DNA of 64,000 bases from a virus. Positions 1,110 through 8,697 of this stretch are shown piece by piece (within the stretch, counting starts at the first letter, position 1; each line of letters begins with the position of its first letter). The DNA is taken from positions 32,001-96,000 of the IMG/VR virus record IMGVR_UViG_3300027971_000028. The stretch is one strand, 5' to 3'. A program made the position numbers and the translations under genes. Below the pieces are notes generated by a model. The model had not been told where the DNA came from, did no database searches, and saw only the letters and a program-made list of their open reading frames with translations.

Positions 1110-4100
1110 TTGCAATTTATAGGTCGTAGTGGGAATAACGCCTTATTTGTGCTTGAAAACAAGGCTGTAGTTGTAGACGAAAAAAGAAACTTAGTTTCTT
1201 CTATTGACTATGCAGATGCGCTCACTGCTTCTTTCACTCCTGATGATAACCAAGAGAATCCATCTTCTGTTACTTACGAGTTAGCAACCGCTGCAATATC
1301 AGATTTAGACATAAAGATTTTTTCAAATAATGACCGTTTATACACAATTCCAAAATCAGTTCAGTCAGAGGCAAAACGTGCCTTAGAGTGGCGTAAAAAG
1401 CATGATCGCGGTGGCACATCGGTAGGTTTAAATACTGCTAGAACTCTTGCTCGTGGTGGTCAAATTGGTATTAGAAAAATTCGTCACATCGCTAAGTACT
1501 TCCCTCGTCATCAAGTAGATAAAAAAGGAAAAGGCTACGAGCCTTCAGAACCTGGCTATCCTTCAAATGGACGCATCGCTTGGGCTCTTTGGGGTGGAGA
1601 TGCTGCTGAACGCTGGGCCAGTGCAATAGTTGCCCGTGAAAATAAGAAGGCTCAGGCAAACTCAATTACTGCTTCATATAAATTTGTTATGGCCGACTAT
1701 GAGTCTCCAGAAAAGGTAGAACTTAACTCTTTTATAGAGTCAGAGATGTTGCCAGAAGATATGGCTCCTCAGTTCTTTATTCGTATTCGTTTAGATGGTA
1801 CTGGCATTGATCGCTTATATAAAGTAAATACAGACGGATCAGTCTTTGTTTGGGACGATGCAATGTGGGAAGATCTTGGAAATATTAACTATGATTTTCA
1901 CACTTACGATAAAAGCCTCGATGATCCCTATGACATGGTTGAGAAAATACATGTTCCTGTAGACACAGAAACTGCAATTATTGTTTCAGGAAACTTAGAC
2001 TCTAATCCTATGAAATCAATTTCTATATCTCAAATTAATCAAGAAGAGTCTGACATATTTGTAGATGAGATGGATAAAATTGATTGGGATTTAATTAATG
2101 AGATTTCTTATGATGAAAATATGTATAGCGAGTATGAGGAGTTTTCAGACTCTTCTTTAACTGCTGCCACTGCTCCGACAGCAGGAACTCCTGTAACTAA
2201 TCAAGATGGAAATTACACTCCAGAAGAGCGCTCTCAGAAAGCACGTTCTCAGGTAAGAGATGCTATAGGTAAGTTTGCCAAGTCTGGTGGACGAGTTGTT
2301 ATTGGTAAAAAGCCAGAGTATTCAGGAACTATTGAATCTATTAACCCTGCTACTCAAAGCGTTAAGGTTAAGTTAGATAATGGAAATTATGTTGATGTTC
2401 CTGCTAATACTACAGAGCCTGCAGATACTTTTAAACCACTTCCACAAGAAAAAACTTTAACATCTACTAAGCAACTTACTAAAGGAATTTTAGGAGAGCC
2501 TAGAGTTCCTATTGATTCCCCTAATGCCACTCTTCCTGGAAAACTTCCTCAATTAAACACTGCTCAAGTTCAAACAATATTAAATGACCTTCCAGCATGG
2601 AGCACTGATCAAAGATTAAAAGCATCTTCTCCTAGCGCTCCTACGGCTGTTAGCACAGAAACAAAAACTCCTAATGCTTATAACGATCCAAGTTTAAGAA
2701 AGTTTTTAGAGAAAAAAGTTGTAGTAAATGGAGAAACCACTTATCCTAATTCAATTTGGTATCAACCAAAAGTAGATCCTTCTTCAATAGAAGGCTACAA
2801 ACCAACTAAAGACTTAACTCCTTCCCCTGGATTAAAAGTTCCACCTGCTTTTCGACAACCTGCTAAAGGTCTTACCTCTGCTGCATCTGTAGCATTAACG
2901 CCAGATACTTCAGATGTTCCACCAATTTATATGGCAATTGTTTCACCTGATGATCCTCAAGCGGTAATGGAATTAGTTTCATTAATACCTACTAGTAAAG
3001 ACTCTGTTGTAACTTCTACATGGAAGCGTAAGCCAGGAGTATGGGAAAAAGATGACTCAATTCTTTCTGATTTAAAGAGTCCTACACCTCCACCAGTTGT
3101 TGTCTTAGATGATGACACCTTAAAAATAGTTTTGGATCAAATAGATTCAGCTGCTAAAACTGCATCTGCATATATTACAGATTCAATAATTTCTTCCTTA
3201 ATTGCTGCTGGAGGAATTGACCGTAACAAAGGAAATGCTGAAAAACTTCGTCGTTATTGGTTATATGGAAAAGGTGCAGCAAAAATTCGTTGGAATACCG
3301 CAGGTGATTGGACCCGCTGCGTTCGCCAACTTTCAAAATACATGGGTCCTCGAGCAAAAGGCTACTGTGCATTGCGTCATAAAGAAGCAACTGGCATGTG
3401 GACTGGAGATAAGGAGCATCGTCAACTTTATGGCAAAAAAGGAATTAGAGCAGACGCGTTTAGCACAGATTTTATACTTCCTTCTGAAGCCATACTCGAA
3501 GCAACCTCTCTTAAAGCAAGAGCAGCGGATGCCAGAAACAGAGTTGTCTTAGCAGGAGCAGAGATAGAAGATTTTAAAGGAGCAGAGTTTGTTATTCCTT
3601 TAGTTATCCCAGAAGACATAGAGTCTGGAGATGGTCGTAAGTTTGAAAAAGGCGCTATTACTATGCGTGAACTTCCTCTTCCATTTTTATGGCAAATTAA
3701 GACTGGCGAGGGTCATTCTGGATCAGTTGTAATTGGAACAATTATTCAGATGGAAAGAGTAGAACAAGGTATTGGAAATGCCAGAGGATATTTTGATACT
3801 GGAGAATACGGAAAAGAAGCGGAAAGATTAGTTCGTGGAGGCTTCATCCGTGGAGTTTCTGCTGATATGGACATGTTTGAAGCAGATGAAGAAAAAGAAA
3901 ATGCTGAAAATGACTCTAACAAAAAAGTTGGAGCAGGTAAAATGAACATAACTAAGGCAAGGGTTATGGCTGTAACTCTTGTCCCCAAGCCCGCTTTTCA
4001 GGAATGTCGAGTAGAACTCGCAGACCAAAGCGGAGAAATGCAGGAGGAAGAAGTGATATCTGATGGAGTGTATGTCGAAGGATTAAATCCTTTAGACGCA

Positions 4101-6302
4101 TCAGCGTTAGTAGCGTGTGGAATTGTGGCTGGGTCAATACCAGTTACTCCACCGAAAGATTGGTTTGCTAACCCAAAATTAAAAAAACCAACCGCACTAA
4201 CAGTAACTGATGAAGGTCAAGTGTATGGTCACATTGCTGCATGGCATGTAGATCATATTGGAATGTCTTATGGAACTCGTCCTCCTCGGAGTAAGAGCAG
4301 TTATGCATACTTCCACACTGGTGCTGTACGTGCTGACGATGGAACAGATGTTCCAGTTGGACAATTAACTTTAGCTGGAGGACATGCTTCTCTTGAAGCA
4401 AGTGCTTCAGAAGCAGTTCGTCATTATGACGACACAGCATCTGCAGTAGCAGATGTACATGCTGGAGAAGATGCTTATGGTATCTGGGTATCAGGAGCAC
4501 TTCGCCCTGGCACAACTCCAGAACAAATTCGTGCTCTACGTGCCTCTGCTCCGTCAGGAGATTGGAGACCGATTAAAGGTGCTTTAGAGCTTGTAGCAAT
4601 TTGTCAGGTAAATGTTCCTGGCTTCCCAATTGCTCGTGCTCGTGTTGCATCAGGTCAAGTTATGGCACTTGTTGCTGCTGGTGCAAGCGTTCTTGCTCAA
4701 CTAAAGAACGATCCTTTAGCAGAGTTACATACTCGAATTGATAAACTAGAAGCACCATTAATTGCGGCTAGTAATAGTGCTAAAGATAGAATGAGAACAA
4801 TTACTGCTGCTATTAAAGCATCTGAATTATCTAATAGAGTAAATAAGATGAAAGAAGAATCTTCTTCTTATATGCTTCAAAGTATTGATAACTCAGATTC
4901 AGAGTTAGCAGTCATTACTCGCAAACAACGTATGGAATTAGCAAAAGATAAAAAAGCACTTCCAGATGGGTCATTCCCAATTAGAAATGTTTCTGATCTA
5001 AAAAATGCTGTTCATGCATATGGACGTGCTAAGCCAGGAAATCGTGGTTTGGTTCGCCGTCATATTGTAAAGATGGCTCGTCAGTTAGATCGAAAAGATC
5101 TAATTCCAGAGAACTGGAAAGAAGCATCCGTAAACGATACAGATAGTATTGCTGCTAGTTTAAGAGCAAGAATCTCTATTGTTGAATCAGTTGTTGCCGC
5201 TGGCGGTTTGGATCGTAACCGGGGAAACGCTGAAACGCTTCGTCGCTACTGGACAAGAGGCGAAGGAGCTGCAAAAATCCGTTGGGGAGCACCTGGTGAC
5301 TGGAGTAGATGCGTAAAGCATTTAGCAAAGTATCTAGGTCCTCGTGCTAAGGGTTACTGTCAACTACGTCATAAAGATGCTTTAGGTATTTACACTGCAA
5401 CACATGCTAAGCGTGATAGAGCTAAGAATAATTCTGTAGAAGAATTTTCTAGTGATTACATGCCAGAGACAATGGAGCAGATGGAGATTCCACAGGATCA
5501 ACTACAAATGCCTGTAAGCAAAATTATTCAACAACCAGATGATCTATATGACGCTCAATGGGAGCCAGAAGATATGATTGTTGTCATTTTAAATGAAATG
5601 GGAGAGGCTTCAGAAGCAGATTTTTTAGCCAATTCTGAAACATTTGCTGAAAAAGATCCTTATGTAGTAGATCAAAGTGAGCCTGTTGGTACACCTGATT
5701 TAACAAAAGAAGATCTAAAAGGTCTTACAGATGAAGAAACAGATATACTAAAAAAAGAAGTTAAGAGTAAGCAAGACGCAGAAAAGTCTAGAGCTAAATA
5801 CACACCTAAAACCCAACCCCGTGATGCCACAGGGAAGTTTCGACAAGTGCTTGCTCGGTTGAAACTGGACCTAGGTGATGCTGGATCAGATGCTGCATTA
5901 AAGAAGATTGAAGAGGTTGATAATCTAGATAATGCTGGTAACTACGCTGAAGCAGCCAAGGCTGCTGGCGATTTGCTAGATATTGTAGATAGATTAGATA
6001 CAGGAGCACTTAACGCTGAGGCTATAGGCAATGTTAGAAACAGTGCTGGAGAATTAGGCAAGGTTATTGCTAACCTACCTTTTGCCTTTGGAGAAGATGC
6101 TCAGAAGATCAGATTTAGTGATGTACCACCTGCCCTACAGGATCTAATGGAAAAAATGATCACTAGGGTTGAGAATAAAATTGGTCAAAAAGACGCAGAT
6201 ATTGCTACTAAAGGTATGAAGGACTTTATGTCAGGTCAAGAGGTCTACAGCCAGAGCGAGATATCTAGTCAAATGTCTAAGTTACTTAGACTACTTACCT
6301 AA
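1110..6302 (+). CDS. Giant multidomain capsid maturation (prohead) protease-containing protein
   Basis: 1730 aa directly upstream of the MCP. Protease-like segment (IPEDIESGDGR..ELPLP..GHSGSVVIG..GKEAERLVRGGFIRGVSADMD), a second actinophage protease-associated domain (GQVYGHIAAW..YAYFHTG..GGHA..GEDAYGIWV), an ALPDGSFPI module and a duplicated ~68-aa repeat. Confidence 0.8.
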   Translation: MQFIGRSGNNALFVLENKAVVVDEKRNLVSSIDYADALTASFTPDDNQENPSSVTYELATAAISDLDIKIFSNNDRLYTIPKSVQSEAKRALEWRKKHDRGGTSVGLNTARTLARGGQIGIRKIRHIAKYFPRHQVDKKGKGYEPSEPGYPSNGRIAWALWGGDAAERWASAIVARENKKAQANSITASYKFVMADYESPEKVELNSFIESEMLPEDMAPQFFIRIRLDGTGIDRLYKVNTDGSVFVWDDAMWEDLGNINYDFHTYDKSLDDPYDMVEKIHVPVDTETAIIVSGNLDSNPMKSISISQINQEESDIFVDEMDKIDWDLINEISYDENMYSEYEEFSDSSLTAATAPTAGTPVTNQDGNYTPEERSQKARSQVRDAIGKFAKSGGRVVIGKKPEYSGTIESINPATQSVKVKLDNGNYVDVPANTTEPADTFKPLPQEKTLTSTKQLTKGILGEPRVPIDSPNATLPGKLPQLNTAQVQTILNDLPAWSTDQRLKASSPSAPTAVSTETKTPNAYNDPSLRKFLEKKVVVNGETTYPNSIWYQPKVDPSSIEGYKPTKDLTPSPGLKVPPAFRQPAKGLTSAASVALTPDTSDVPPIYMAIVSPDDPQAVMELVSLIPTSKDSVVTSTWKRKPGVWEKDDSILSDLKSPTPPPVVVLDDDTLKIVLDQIDSAAKTASAYITDSIISSLIAAGGIDRNKGNAEKLRRYWLYGKGAAKIRWNTAGDWTRCVRQLSKYMGPRAKGYCALRHKEATGMWTGDKEHRQLYGKKGIRADAFSTDFILPSEAILEATSLKARAADARNRVVLAGAEIEDFKGAEFVIPLVIPEDIESGDGRKFEKGAITMRELPLPFLWQIKTGEGHSGSVVIGTIIQMERVEQGIGNARGYFDTGEYGKEAERLVRGGFIRGVSADMDMFEADEEKENAENDSNKKVGAGKMNITKARVMAVTLVPKPAFQECRVELADQSGEMQEEEVISDGVYVEGLNPLDASALVACGIVAGSIPVTPPKDWFANPKLKKPTALTVTDEGQVYGHIAAWHVDHIGMSYGTRPPRSKSSYAYFHTGAVRADDGTDVPVGQLTLAGGHASLEASASEAVRHYDDTASAVADVHAGEDAYGIWVSGALRPGTTPEQIRALRASAPSGDWRPIKGALELVAICQVNVPGFPIARARVASGQVMALVAAGASVLAQLKNDPLAELHTRIDKLEAPLIAASNSAKDRMRTITAAIKASELSNRVNKMKEESSSYMLQSIDNSDSELAVITRKQRMELAKDKKALPDGSFPIRNVSDLKNAVHAYGRAKPGNRGLVRRHIVKMARQLDRKDLIPENWKEASVNDTDSIAASLRARISIVESVVAAGGLDRNRGNAETLRRYWTRGEGAAKIRWGAPGDWSRCVKHLAKYLGPRAKGYCQLRHKDALGIYTATHAKRDRAKNNSVEEFSSDYMPETMEQMEIPQDQLQMPVSKIIQQPDDLYDAQWEPEDMIVVILNEMGEASEADFLANSETFAEKDPYVVDQSEPVGTPDLTKEDLKGLTDEETDILKKEVKSKQDAEKSRAKYTPKTQPRDATGKFRQVLARLKLDLGDAGSDAALKKIEEVDNLDNAGNYAEAAKAAGDLLDIVDRLDTGALNAEAIGNVRNSAGELGKVIANLPFAFGEDAQKIRFSDVPPALQDLMEKMITRVENKIGQKDADIATKGMKDFMSGQEVYSQSEISSQMSKLLRLLT
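3204..5400 (+). repeat. Two copies of a ~68-aa domain (approx. 3204-3408 and 5196-5400) in the protease polyprotein
   Basis: AAGGIDRNKGNAEKLRRYW..GAAKIRW..GDW.RCV..L.KY.GPRAKGYC.LRHK occurs twice in the translation. Confidence 0.9.
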
Positions 6303-6365
6303 TCGGTAAAAACAGTACAAAAAAGAAAATCACACTATAAGAACTAATGTAGTATTCAGTATTAG

Positions 6366-6466
6366 GTGGAGTGCCTCCACGCATCTATTGCGTCCGCGAG
6401 TCCCTCAGCCTCGACTGATCAGCGAGATGGGGAAAAGCCCTATCCTAACTGACCCTAAGGAGGGAC
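6366..6466 (+). promoter_or_regulatory. Structured 5' leader of the major capsid gene (multi-hairpin, abuts or occludes the SD)
   Basis: Stems: GTGGAG/CTCCAC (6366-6380), ACGCA/TGCGT (6379-6393), CTCG-CTG/CAG-CGAG (6410-6426), GATGGGG/CCCTATC (6426-6444), TCAG/CTGA, GTCCCT (6400-6405)/AGGGAC (6461-6466). GC-rich island in an AT-rich genome. Confidence 0.6.
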
Positions 6467-6470
6467 AGTA

Positions 6471-8609
6471 GTGGACCAAATCAAACAAATGATGGATCAG
6501 TTATCTGACATCACTGACGAACAAGTTAGTGAACTTCAGGCATCTATCCTCAGCGAATTTGAATCGGTCGAGAAGGAGGATCCTACTCCGCAGACAGTTG
6601 ACGCTATGACGTCACTTGCCGACATGCTCGATGGAGTTAGAAACGAAATCAAGCGTCGTGAGGTAGCAACTGTAGAACTTGCTCAAAAAGCAGCAGAAGC
6701 AACTAATCGCGTATACGGAAAAGAAGACGAAAATAAAGACATGGAAACTACTGAAGTTAAAGATGCTGCAATGCATGAAGAGGCTCCTGCCGCTCCTGCT
6801 GAAGAAGCACCTGTAACTGAAGAAGCACCTGTTTCTGAAACTCCTGCCCCAACCATGGAAGAGGAGAAAAAAATGGAAGATGCAGCAGCAATGCCTGCAG
6901 CTCCAGAAGTTACTCCAGAAGTAGAAGATGAAAAATCTCCTGCAGACATGGAAGAAGACAAAAAGGAAGAAAAGGAAATGGAAAAAACTATGACTGAAGC
7001 GTCAACCGAAGCAGATAAGAAATCTGAATTTTCGACTGAAGTTAAAGAAACAACTGAAGCAGCAGCAGCTGTGGAAGAGATAGTTGTTGCAGCTGTTGCA
7101 GAAGCACCAGCAACAACAACAACAGCAGAAGTACCAGTAGTAGCAGAAGCAGCAGTTGTAGAAGAGGTAGCAGTATCGCAAGATGCTCCTGCAGCTGAAG
7201 CAGCAGTTGTTGTTACTGAAGGTGCTGAAGCAGCAATCATTGAAACACCAACACAAACAGAAAATGTGCAAACAGCACAAGAAACTATGGAGGCACCCGT
7301 GACCGCCGCTGCAGATAACGCAGATAACCTCAACATCGAGGTACCGGCTGACCGTCGCCCAACATCTCGGACAACAGAAGCAGCCGTGGCAATCACTGCT
7401 GGTGCTGATATTCCTGGATATACAGCAGGCAGCTCAATTTCAAGCATGGCAGAAGTTGCAGAAGCAATGGCCAAGCGTCTACATGGCCTACGCCGTGTAA
7501 ATGGTGGAGATGGAGAACAACATATTGTTGCTTCTATTTCTACCCAATTTCCAGAGGCTCGCACCCTTAATCAGGATGCACAAGCTAACTGGGACAAAGT
7601 ACAAGCTGTAGTCGGACCTGAGGCACTTGTTGCTTCTGGTGGACATCAAGCACCTTTCGAGGTTAAGTACGATATCTTCGGTCTTGGCTCAGCAGTGCGC
7701 CCAGTCCGTGATTCTCTACCTCGTTTCCAAGCAGACCGTGGCGGTATCCGCTACATCACTCCACCAGTACTTAGCTCATATGCTAGCGCTGTTGGTGTAT
7801 GGACTGCTGCTAACGATTCAGCAGAAACACCAAGCCCAGCTTCAAAGTTGAGCTTAACTGTAGCCGCAGCTGCTGAGACAACTGTCTCAACTGATGCTGT
7901 TACTTTGCAACTACAATTCGGTAACCTTCTAAGCCGTGCATATCCTGAATTAATTGCTCGTCACAACGAACTTGGTTTAATTCAACATGCTCGCGAGGCT
8001 GAAGGAAATCTTATGGCAAAAATCGGTTCAGCATCAACAGCCGTTACTTCAACTTCCGTAATTGGAATGGGTCGTGACTTCCTAGTTCAACTAGGTCGCG
8101 CTGCTGCCGCTTACCGTGCACGTCATCGTCTAGATGCAGATGCTCCACTTCGCGCAATTATTCCAGCATGGATTAAAGACGCAATGGCAGCTGATCTAAC
8201 TTTAAATATGCCTGGAGATTCAACTCTAAATGCATATGCAGAGATTGATGGCTACATTGCAGCTCGCGGAATCAACGCTACATTTGCTCTAGATACTGCA
8301 GCAGGAGCTTCTCCTTTTGCAGCACAGAGCTCTGGCGCAATGAATGAGTTCCCAGATACATTCGTTTGGTACTTATTTGCTGAAGGATCATTCTTGTTCC
8401 TTGATGGTGGCACTTTGGATCTTGGAGTTATCCGTGATTCAACACTTGTCGGCACCAACGACTACAAGATGTTCGTTGAAACCTTTGAGAACGTTGCCCT
8501 TATCGGCGTCGAATCTCTACAGGTTACATCAACTATCAATGTAAACGGAGTAGCAGCCGCTCTTCGCGATACACTTGGTGGATTGACTGCAGCAACAATC
8601 GAGTACTAA
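6471..8609 (+). CDS. Major capsid protein with fused N-terminal acidic scaffold
   Basis: GTG start after AAGGAGGG; ~280-aa E/A/P-rich low-complexity N-terminus; C-terminal capsid-like region beginning ALVASGG..AP; followed by a strong hairpin. Confidence 0.85.
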   Translation: MDQIKQMMDQLSDITDEQVSELQASILSEFESVEKEDPTPQTVDAMTSLADMLDGVRNEIKRREVATVELAQKAAEATNRVYGKEDENKDMETTEVKDAAMHEEAPAAPAEEAPVTEEAPVSETPAPTMEEEKKMEDAAAMPAAPEVTPEVEDEKSPADMEEDKKEEKEMEKTMTEASTEADKKSEFSTEVKETTEAAAAVEEIVVAAVAEAPATTTTAEVPVVAEAAVVEEVAVSQDAPAAEAAVVVTEGAEAAIIETPTQTENVQTAQETMEAPVTAAADNADNLNIEVPADRRPTSRTTEAAVAITAGADIPGYTAGSSISSMAEVAEAMAKRLHGLRRVNGGDGEQHIVASISTQFPEARTLNQDAQANWDKVQAVVGPEALVASGGHQAPFEVKYDIFGLGSAVRPVRDSLPRFQADRGGIRYITPPVLSSYASAVGVWTAANDSAETPSPASKLSLTVAAAAETTVSTDAVTLQLQFGNLLSRAYPELIARHNELGLIQHAREAEGNLMAKIGSASTAVTSTSVIGMGRDFLVQLGRAAAAYRARHRLDADAPLRAIIPAWIKDAMAADLTLNMPGDSTLNAYAEIDGYIAARGINATFALDTAAGASPFAAQSSGAMNEFPDTFVWYLFAEGSFLFLDGGTLDLGVIRDSTLVGTNDYKMFVETFENVALIGVESLQVTSTINVNGVAAALRDTLGGLTAATIEY

Positions 8610-8629: not shown

Positions 8630-8653
8630 GGGGAGCCTAAAAATAGGCTCCCC
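8630..8653 (+). terminator. Perfect 10-bp hairpin after the capsid gene (no U-tract)
   Basis: GGGGAGCCTA-AAAA-TAGGCTCCCC. Confidence 0.7.
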
Positions 8654-8697
8654 CGATACAATAAACAAAAACTAGATTTAAGTTAGGAACAGAGAAC

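Follow-up and report, generated by a model that had tools for sequence, protein, structure and literature searches.

A conserved structured RNA leader directly upstream of the major capsid gene in a family of uncultured lake phages

The window analysed here, a stretch of 64,000 nucleotides, forms part of a 133-kb IMG/VR virus record from an uncultured lake phage. Near its beginning a gap of 168 nt separates an open reading frame (ORF) of 1730 aa (1110-6302) from the 712-aa ORF that starts with GTG at 6471, and it is this gap that holds the leader described below (Table 1). Residues 168-699 of the 712-aa product match the major head protein family PHROG 777 (E 1.2e-77), and the homologue of this ORF in DSL-LC01, a metagenome-assembled Actinomycetia phage whose host is predicted to be actinobacterial (PMC10611076), carries the annotation major capsid protein. 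The product of the 1730-aa ORF matches PHROG families that bear the annotations portal protein and head-maturation protease; by position it corresponds to three coding sequences of DSL-LC01 (L202:980-5899), all annotated as capsid maturation protease, and the region is either fused in the window phage or split (or mis-called) in DSL-LC01. The N-terminus of the capsid protein, MDQIK or VDRIK, follows the leader directly and is kept in all relatives. The first ~167 capsid residues (window 6471-6970) lie outside the PHROG match, and this conserved, acidic and helix-like N-terminal part (MDQIKQMMDQLSD...) would be compatible with a fused scaffold or delta-like domain. A search of the window for tRNA and tmRNA genes found none.

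Table 1. Position of the leader, its structural elements and the neighbouring features in the window.
Feature	Position	Strand	Basis
Predicted extended -10 element, TG (6348-6349) and TAGTAT (6350-6355)	6348-6355	+	Comparison of relatives
Structured non-coding leader, ~107 bases directly 5' of the major capsid gene	6364-6470	+	
P1, long 5'-terminal hairpin	6364-6411	+	RNAalifold, pair counts
J1/2, conserved linker (CGACUGAUCAGCGA)	6412-6425	+	Alignments
P2, variable hairpin, GAUGGGG (6426-6432) with CCCUAUC (6438-6444), loop AAAAG	6426-6444	+	Pair counts
P3, ribosome-binding-site hairpin	6448-6469	+	Pair counts
Fold B, GUCCCUC (6400-6406) with GAGGGAC (6460-6466), encloses P2	6400-6466	+	Possible; no covariation support
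Major capsid (head) protein gene, 712 aa, GTG start	6471-8609	+	ORF list, PHROG 777

A sequence-only reading of the window had described a GC-rich island in this gap and had proposed that a multi-stem RNA leader in front of the capsid gene could hide the ribosome-binding site through pairing of GTCCCT (6400-6405) with AGGGAC (6461-6466), the latter overlapping the Shine-Dalgarno (SD) sequence AAGGAGGG at 6457-6464. Its coordinates, motifs and gene assignment are correct and the hairpins that it listed are present. The island too is real, with a G+C content of 0.53 at 6350-6449, and of 0.55 over the element matched in relatives, against 0.33 in the AT-rich flank at 6250-6349. The predicted fold of 6330-6490 has a z score of -2.6 and is matched by three of 200 shuffled sequences, that of 6361-6473 a z score of -1.4, matched by 21 of 200; a fold that is only moderately better than shuffles is, taken alone, weak evidence.

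No match to Rfam 15 was found in the whole window at gathering thresholds, and at E values up to 10 the 271 nt from 6250 to 6520 gave a lone chance match of 9.3 bits on the minus strand, to astro_FSE, whose gathering score is 70. The Rfam search that had been suggested as a check therefore places the leader in no Rfam family and marks the family as new to Rfam: it is an uncurated RNA family without an Rfam counterpart. The leader resembles the curated phage cis-regulatory motifs GP20-a (RF02991) and GP20-b (RF03003) in being a conserved motif upstream of a phage structural gene, but unlike them fits no Rfam model. It also resembles, in having come from comparative analysis of uncultured viral contigs, the members of a 2023 catalogue of 8,495 uncurated structured-RNA candidates from IMG/VR intergenic regions (PMC10690425). 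Five of these are described there as lying upstream of a different capsid family, PHA00201, and the present leader may already be among the unnamed DNAVirus_N candidates of the catalogue.

Relatives were collected through two protein-seeded scans and one DNA-pattern scan of IMG/VR, together with DSL-LC01, which gave at least ~85-90 distinct leader sequences from IMG/VR contigs and DSL-LC01. The leader stands directly upstream of the capsid gene in every homologue examined, across capsid protein identities from 58% to 98%, and the ~105-125 nt before the start codon share the blocks AGGTRGAGTGCCT, AGTCCCTYGGCC, GAYTG, ACTGNCC and GGAGG..ACAG, separated by hairpins that vary in sequence and length. 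Three DNA-pattern matches that lack the rest of the motif are G+C-rich coding DNA. A covariance model (R1) finds one strong match of 60-120 bits per source, always abutting the start codon, in all 75 non-redundant sources. In the phage's own 133-kb genome R1 has a single match, of 113.9 bits, and a search of that genome turned up no second motif, and no repeat of either P1 strand, beyond chance; the motif is linked to the capsid gene only.

A comparison with the phage GenBank collection by DNA similarity matched DSL-LC01 alone, and there inside the capsid coding part. A loose-pattern scan of prokaryote genomes returned at least 120 matches in unrelated taxa, and among the matches listed none of 80 fitted R1, so the pattern was too loose and the scan taught us nothing about the host. 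Contigs covering the capsid region (window 5600-7400) occur in 14 lake-water metatranscriptome runs from 13 studies (2015-2025), from which it follows that the phage family is widespread in lakes and is probably transcriptionally active there. The leader is near-unchanged in a large family of freshwater actinobacterial phages, the hosts being predicted.

Pairing was counted in a model-based alignment of 75 distinct sequences, which was fitted to the model and is therefore biased in its favour. Without guidance, RNAalifold run on a MAFFT alignment recovers the lower helix of P1 (AGGUGGAGUGCCUC with GAGUCCCUCGGCCU), P2 and P3. Over all helices 95.6% of cells are paired in the 75 sequences and double-sided changes occur at 16 of the 30 pairs; none of 500 shuffles attains the observed pairing score, and sliding the partners by 1-3 columns leaves 34-44% pairing. 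The covariation check that the sequence-only reading had asked for on homologous leaders has thus revealed structural conservation, and a multi-stem RNA before the major capsid gene is genuine, conserved in every relative examined and backed by covariation in three hairpins. G-U pairs are frequent when the + strand is read and only then (U7-G55, for example, in 61 sequences), and this shows that the RNA is read from the + strand. The distance from one P1 half-site to the other is not constant among relatives, an observation that speaks against a dimeric DNA operator. From these patterns of substitution we conclude that the leader is a structured RNA rather than a DNA site or a coding sequence. 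A 15-codon upstream ORF from GTG 6371 was considered and rejected: it is not kept among relatives, in which hairpin lengths run out of frame and some read GTG CCT TAA.

The lower helix of P1 joins AGGUGGAGUGCCUC (6364-6377) to GAGUCCCUCAGCCU (6398-6411) through 11 pairs that are interrupted by three conserved mismatches, G6368/A6407, U6372/C6403 and C6374/U6401. It is 98.2% paired and nearly invariant, with four of its 11 pairs changed on both sides, while the apical stem (ACGCA at 6379-6383 with TGCGT at 6389-6393) shows such changes at four of five pairs. Folded alone, P1 has a predicted energy of -15.9 kcal/mol. At pair 9-53 the DSL-LC01 clade has A-U in place of G-C, and at pair 17-45 C-G gives way to U-A or A-U; for the lower helix, the substitutions that tell us most are those of the DSL-LC01 clade and of the relative L277. 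Among the variants, GAG/CUC becomes AAG/CUU, and CUC/GAG becomes CUU/AAG or CUAU/AUAG, and a G-G mismatch is exchanged for a single mismatch, a bulge or a G-U pair in the DSL-LC01 clade or L277. The linker J1/2 that follows reads GAYUGAUNAGCGAG in the main clade and GGACAGAAACCCGAG in the DSL-LC01 clade, and an all-against-all covariation scan supported neither a partner for J1/2 nor any extra helix or pseudoknot.

All seven pairs of P2 covary, and 95.3% of its cells are paired, with a stem length and a loop that vary freely; folded alone it has an energy of -9.8 kcal/mol (z -2.9). P2 and the apical stem of P1 had both been read off the single sequence as local hairpins, and both are conserved. 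P3 pairs ACUG (6448-6451) with CAGU (6466-6469) and CCC(U) (6453-6456) with (A)GGG (6461-6464) around the mismatch A6452/A6465, and it holds the SD core AAGGAGG (6457-6463) in its loop and 3' arm. It is mostly invariant, with 97.1% of cells paired and one double-sided pair change (C-G to U-A, in L277), and has an energy of -9.7 kcal/mol when folded alone (z -2.75). The variable base of the ACUGNCC block always lies opposite an invariant A and is therefore unconstrained, as the P3 helix predicts. In all members the ribosome site is inside P3, with GGAGG in the loop or the 3' arm and the spacer in the 3' arm, to which the first bases of the start codon also belong in most relatives. The claim that the ribosome-binding site lies within a conserved structure holds, and the local CCCT/AGGG fold offered as an alternative to the long-range stem is conserved too, as part of P3.

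Three further pairings were set aside. A covarying pair that stands by itself, C64-G136, lacks paired neighbours and is seen in only five sequences, which look closely related to one another; we regard it as coincidence. An outer helix between UCAGU, upstream of P1, and ACUGA in J1/2 seemed to be compensated in one clade (UCAAUA/UAUUGA), and was ruled out as it is missing in most clades and lies upstream of the predicted transcription start. Pairing of J1/2 with the 5' arm of P3 (GGACAG/CUGGCC) fits the DSL-LC01 clade alone, not the main clade. The junction of P3 and start codon (window 6466-6473) is an indel hotspot, with the forms ACAGTGG, ACAGTAGTGG, ACAGTTCGTGG, ACAGAGTGG and ACAGTATGG; the start codon is GTG in most members and ATG in a clade with a weakened SD (GGAAAAGGAAC) and in a few others.

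Upstream of P1 the relatives share a putative promoter of the extended -10 type. Each of the 74 relatives whose sequence extends far enough upstream has a TAnnnT hexamer that stops 6-10 nt short of P1, most often at 7 nt and at 6-8 nt in 67 of them, and a TG is adjacent to the hexamer or 1 nt off in 59 of the 74. Transcription would then start at about 6361-6363, 0-3 nt before P1, and this spacing predicts that P1 lies at the extreme 5' end of the transcript. A consensus sigma-70 scan did not call a promoter at the leader because it requires a -35 box, whereas the proposed promoter is of the extended -10 type. Among the RNA contigs, a clean 2-kb contig (run X2) begins at 6387 with nothing upstream, although assembled contigs reveal neither 5' ends nor expression levels, and contig depth rises several-fold across the leader in two other runs, in depths that mix related strains; together they give a weak hint of a local transcript start, and the gaps in coverage that some runs show carry no weight. 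Two more boxes lie upstream of the hexamer. One, ATCGTACAA, reads CAGTACAA in the window (6313-6320) and elsewhere in the window has matches no commoner than in shuffles; the other, AATCAC (6328-6333), is always ~16 nt away from the -10 hexamer. Depending on the relative, the two boxes are 0 to 10 nt apart, and both are gone where the upstream ORF ends nearer the leader. They could represent an unusual -35 region or an activator site.

The reading that we prefer, with a probability of roughly 0.6, is that the leader is a stabilising 5' UTR of a capsid transcript with its own promoter, which also gates access to the ribosome site; a cis-regulatory or stabilising role, as the sequence-only reading had offered, is in our estimation the best account of the conserved leader. 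Transcription would proceed from the extended -10 promoter, and the RNA would fold during synthesis into three serial hairpins, beginning with P1 at the very 5' end. With no more than ~3 bases left free ahead of it, P1 should shield the message from decay that depends on the 5' end, and its lower helix would at the same time occupy the pyrimidine-rich GUCCCUC, which could otherwise pair with the SD. P2 would serve as a spacer hairpin under selection for pairing alone. P3 would enclose the ribosome site, with GGAGG in or beside the loop and the spacer in the 3' arm, and so set the rate of initiation; with the ribosome site in P3, a 30S subunit must open a hairpin of about -10 kcal/mol. The leader is thereby proposed to act in cis on both the lifetime and the translation initiation rate of the mRNA for the most abundant virion protein.

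Stabilisers and hidden ribosome sites both have precedents. Stem-loops near the 5' end stabilise transcripts in the Escherichia coli ompA and Bacillus subtilis aprE leaders, and SD-like sequences do so in the SP82 polypurine element and the cryIIIA STAB-SD. The capsid leader is like all four in serving a highly expressed gene, like ompA and aprE in having a hairpin predicted to lie 0-3 nt from the 5' end, and like SP82 and STAB-SD in the purine-rich, SD-like 5' strand of P1 (AGGUGGAG). It departs from the latter two in that its SD-like stretch is base-paired in P1 rather than free, and from all four in that they need little sequence conservation while the leader has ~30 invariant positions; its likeness to a stabiliser is a prediction. 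Among phage late genes, structured leaders with a hidden ribosome site are likewise familiar. In phage Mu, a hairpin occluding the ribosome-binding site of mom is opened by the factor Com, and the lambda cIII message exists as two conformers, with RNase III assisting. The likeness lies in an SD and spacer held in a conserved hairpin and in the possibility of mutually exclusive folds, but for the capsid leader there is no known activator, nor any homology to these systems.

Mutually exclusive folds bring us to the pairing from which the sequence-only reading had set out. GUCCCUC is the 3' strand of P1, so its pairing with GAGGGAC (fold B) excludes both the lower helix of P1 and P3 (fold A). Fold B would have as its companion a 5' mini-hairpin, GUGGAG (6367-6372) with CUCCAC (6376-6381). 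On this basis the leader could be a two-state translational switch that times or limits capsid synthesis: the mini-hairpin would capture the 5' strand of P1, the freed GUCCCUC would lock the SD, and kinetics, a factor or temperature would decide the outcome. Both helices can form in nearly all members (97.0% and 93.8% of cells, respectively), so the proposed GTCCCT/AGGGAC stem survives as a possible structure; no compensatory change accompanies it, however, as none of its seven pairs is compensated in the 75 sequences, both sides hardly vary, and shuffles reach the observed scores. The mini-hairpin is not above shuffles either. Mutations on the SD side, in 7, 6 and 3 cells at three pairs (16 in total), break the long-range stem and are never matched on the opposite side, and the GGAAAAGGAAC clade persists with two mismatches in fold B. 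Where C6406 has changed to U, by contrast, its P1 partner has changed from G to A in half of the cases, which points to selection for P1 and not for pairing with the SD.

Covariation in the alignment is thus confined to one of the two competing helices, the lower helix of P1, and the architecture as drawn from the single sequence has to be revised, in that GUCCCUC is paired by covariation with the 5' end of the leader, AGGUGGAGUGCCUC, and not with the SD. The nested helices proposed in support of the long-range stem fail as well. TCAG/CTGA is 66% paired and not conserved, and a GGCC/GGCC extension that we tried pairs in 85.5% of cells, is uncompensated and is broken in 26 cells at a single pair. 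Over the whole family the energy predictions come out nearly equal for the two folds, fold B minus fold A averaging -0.9 +/- 3.4 kcal/mol with B lower in 47 of 75 sequences, in fragment predictions made with no null model, and in the window (6330-6490) the two folds are 0.5 kcal/mol apart; nearest-neighbour energies on 120-nt fragments are, however, rough. A need for the P1 3' strand to serve two partners would explain why this strand and the mismatches are invariant, but any strand that pairs with the purine-rich, SD-like 5' strand of P1 must itself resemble an anti-SD, and the complementarity between GUCCCUC and the SD may be a by-product.

The closest precedent for such a switch is the leader of the MS2 maturation (A) gene, in which an upstream complementary sequence pairs with the SD and delayed folding creates a kinetic trap; in MS2 that pairing has been proven to prevail at equilibrium, and it holds expression down. 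Both are 5' leaders of phage genes, ~100-130 nt long and with several hairpins, and both have upstream pyrimidines complementary to the SD and a competing 5' hairpin able to hold them. They differ in that the long-range pairing shows no covariation here and the competing P1 helix is the supported one, and in that the capsid leader serves the most abundant virion protein of a DNA phage and has no sequence relation to MS2. Weighing these points, we consider a bistable translational switch built on an invariant recognition helix, in which a late protein, the ribosome or temperature would choose the fold, to be unlikely. If true, it would be a new class of phage regulatory RNA that times capsid synthesis in a widespread family.

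Returning to the stabilising and gating leader, one point against it is the degree of sequence constraint. Pairwise identity is 0.93-0.94 for the P1 strands and 0.85 for the P3 region, whereas the first 30 capsid codons reach 0.66 overall and 0.48 at third positions; with leader identity above that of the capsid codons, constraint on the leader is stronger than on the protein that it precedes. Mismatched bases of P1 are as strictly conserved as paired ones, and ~30 leader positions are invariant, including the P1 mismatches and much of J1/2. Pairing alone does not explain this, and the invariance of P1 and J1/2 points to a further, specific partner of the leader, a protein or an alternative fold. 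A pure stabiliser would not need ~30 invariant positions, and something more specific is probably being recognised, be it by a protein, by the ribosome or by alternative pairing. A buried ribosome site on the most highly expressed gene is likewise unexpected for a purely constitutive element.

One candidate for this partner is a phage or host protein that would bind the lower helix of P1 with its mismatches, and possibly J1/2, such as a late translational activator or repressor, the capsid or scaffold protein in autogenous control, or an RNase III-like nuclease that processes read-through transcripts. Strands that are 93-94% identical, with mismatches equally strict, are typical of sequence-specific recognition; P1 as a whole spans about two helical turns, and its single copy in the genome is expected of a gene-specific operator. 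Yet no candidate protein was found, the genome holds no second operator, and the invariance could stem instead from the dual pairing that a switch would demand. We therefore view a protein operator as conceivable but tentative; it can coexist with the stabilising and gating role.

Two other readings start from position and from the unpaired bases, respectively. Since two of its hairpins directly follow a putative promoter, and a long run of structural genes on the same strand begins here, the leader could be a put-like processive antiterminator, a promoter-proximal RNA that acts on RNA polymerase and permits read-through into the tail genes, and a strong G+C hairpin 3' of the capsid gene in the window and some relatives would suit this. 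But an element that takes in the ribosome site and stops precisely where the start codon begins is more suggestive of translation; the downstream hairpin carries no U tract and is missing in many relatives that bear the leader, and no Rfam family is similar; we judge such a role very improbable. Still harder to credit is a metabolite riboswitch or a self-cleaving ribozyme, suggested by the invariant unpaired or mismatched nucleotides and by a superficial likeness of J1/2 (CUGAUNAG) to the hammerhead core, CUGAUGA ... GAAA, in which G8 is essential. C, A, U and G all occur at the position equivalent to G8, and P2 is not followed by GAAA; no Rfam model is found at E up to 10 in the 271-nt stretch, the hairpins are serial and form no multi-helix junction or supported pseudoknot, and the gene served is structural rather than metabolic.

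We know of no work on late-gene control in these abundant 130-kb uncultured phages, whose hosts are predicted to be actinobacteria. A leader that matches no Rfam model, is more conserved than the capsid gene and recurs in at least ~85-90 sequences and at least 14 metatranscriptome runs offers a compact handle on such control, with 125 nt taking in a putative promoter, a hairpin at the 5' end and another over the ribosome site. The invariant blocks, of 7-14 nt each, could be used as sequence tags by which to recognise the family in lake metagenomes.

The hairpin beyond the capsid gene is an observation in its own right. It pairs GGGGAGCCUA with UAGGCUCCCC at 8630-8654, 20 nt past the capsid stop codon, in a region with a z score of -3.7, and has UUGUUGA and GAUACAA on its two sides. 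The hairpin is missing from at least seven other relatives in which the leader is retained, and similar hairpins with the same flanks lie 3' of the capsid gene in L009, L022 and DSL-LC01, where, as in the window, they may act as a terminator or a 3' stabiliser.
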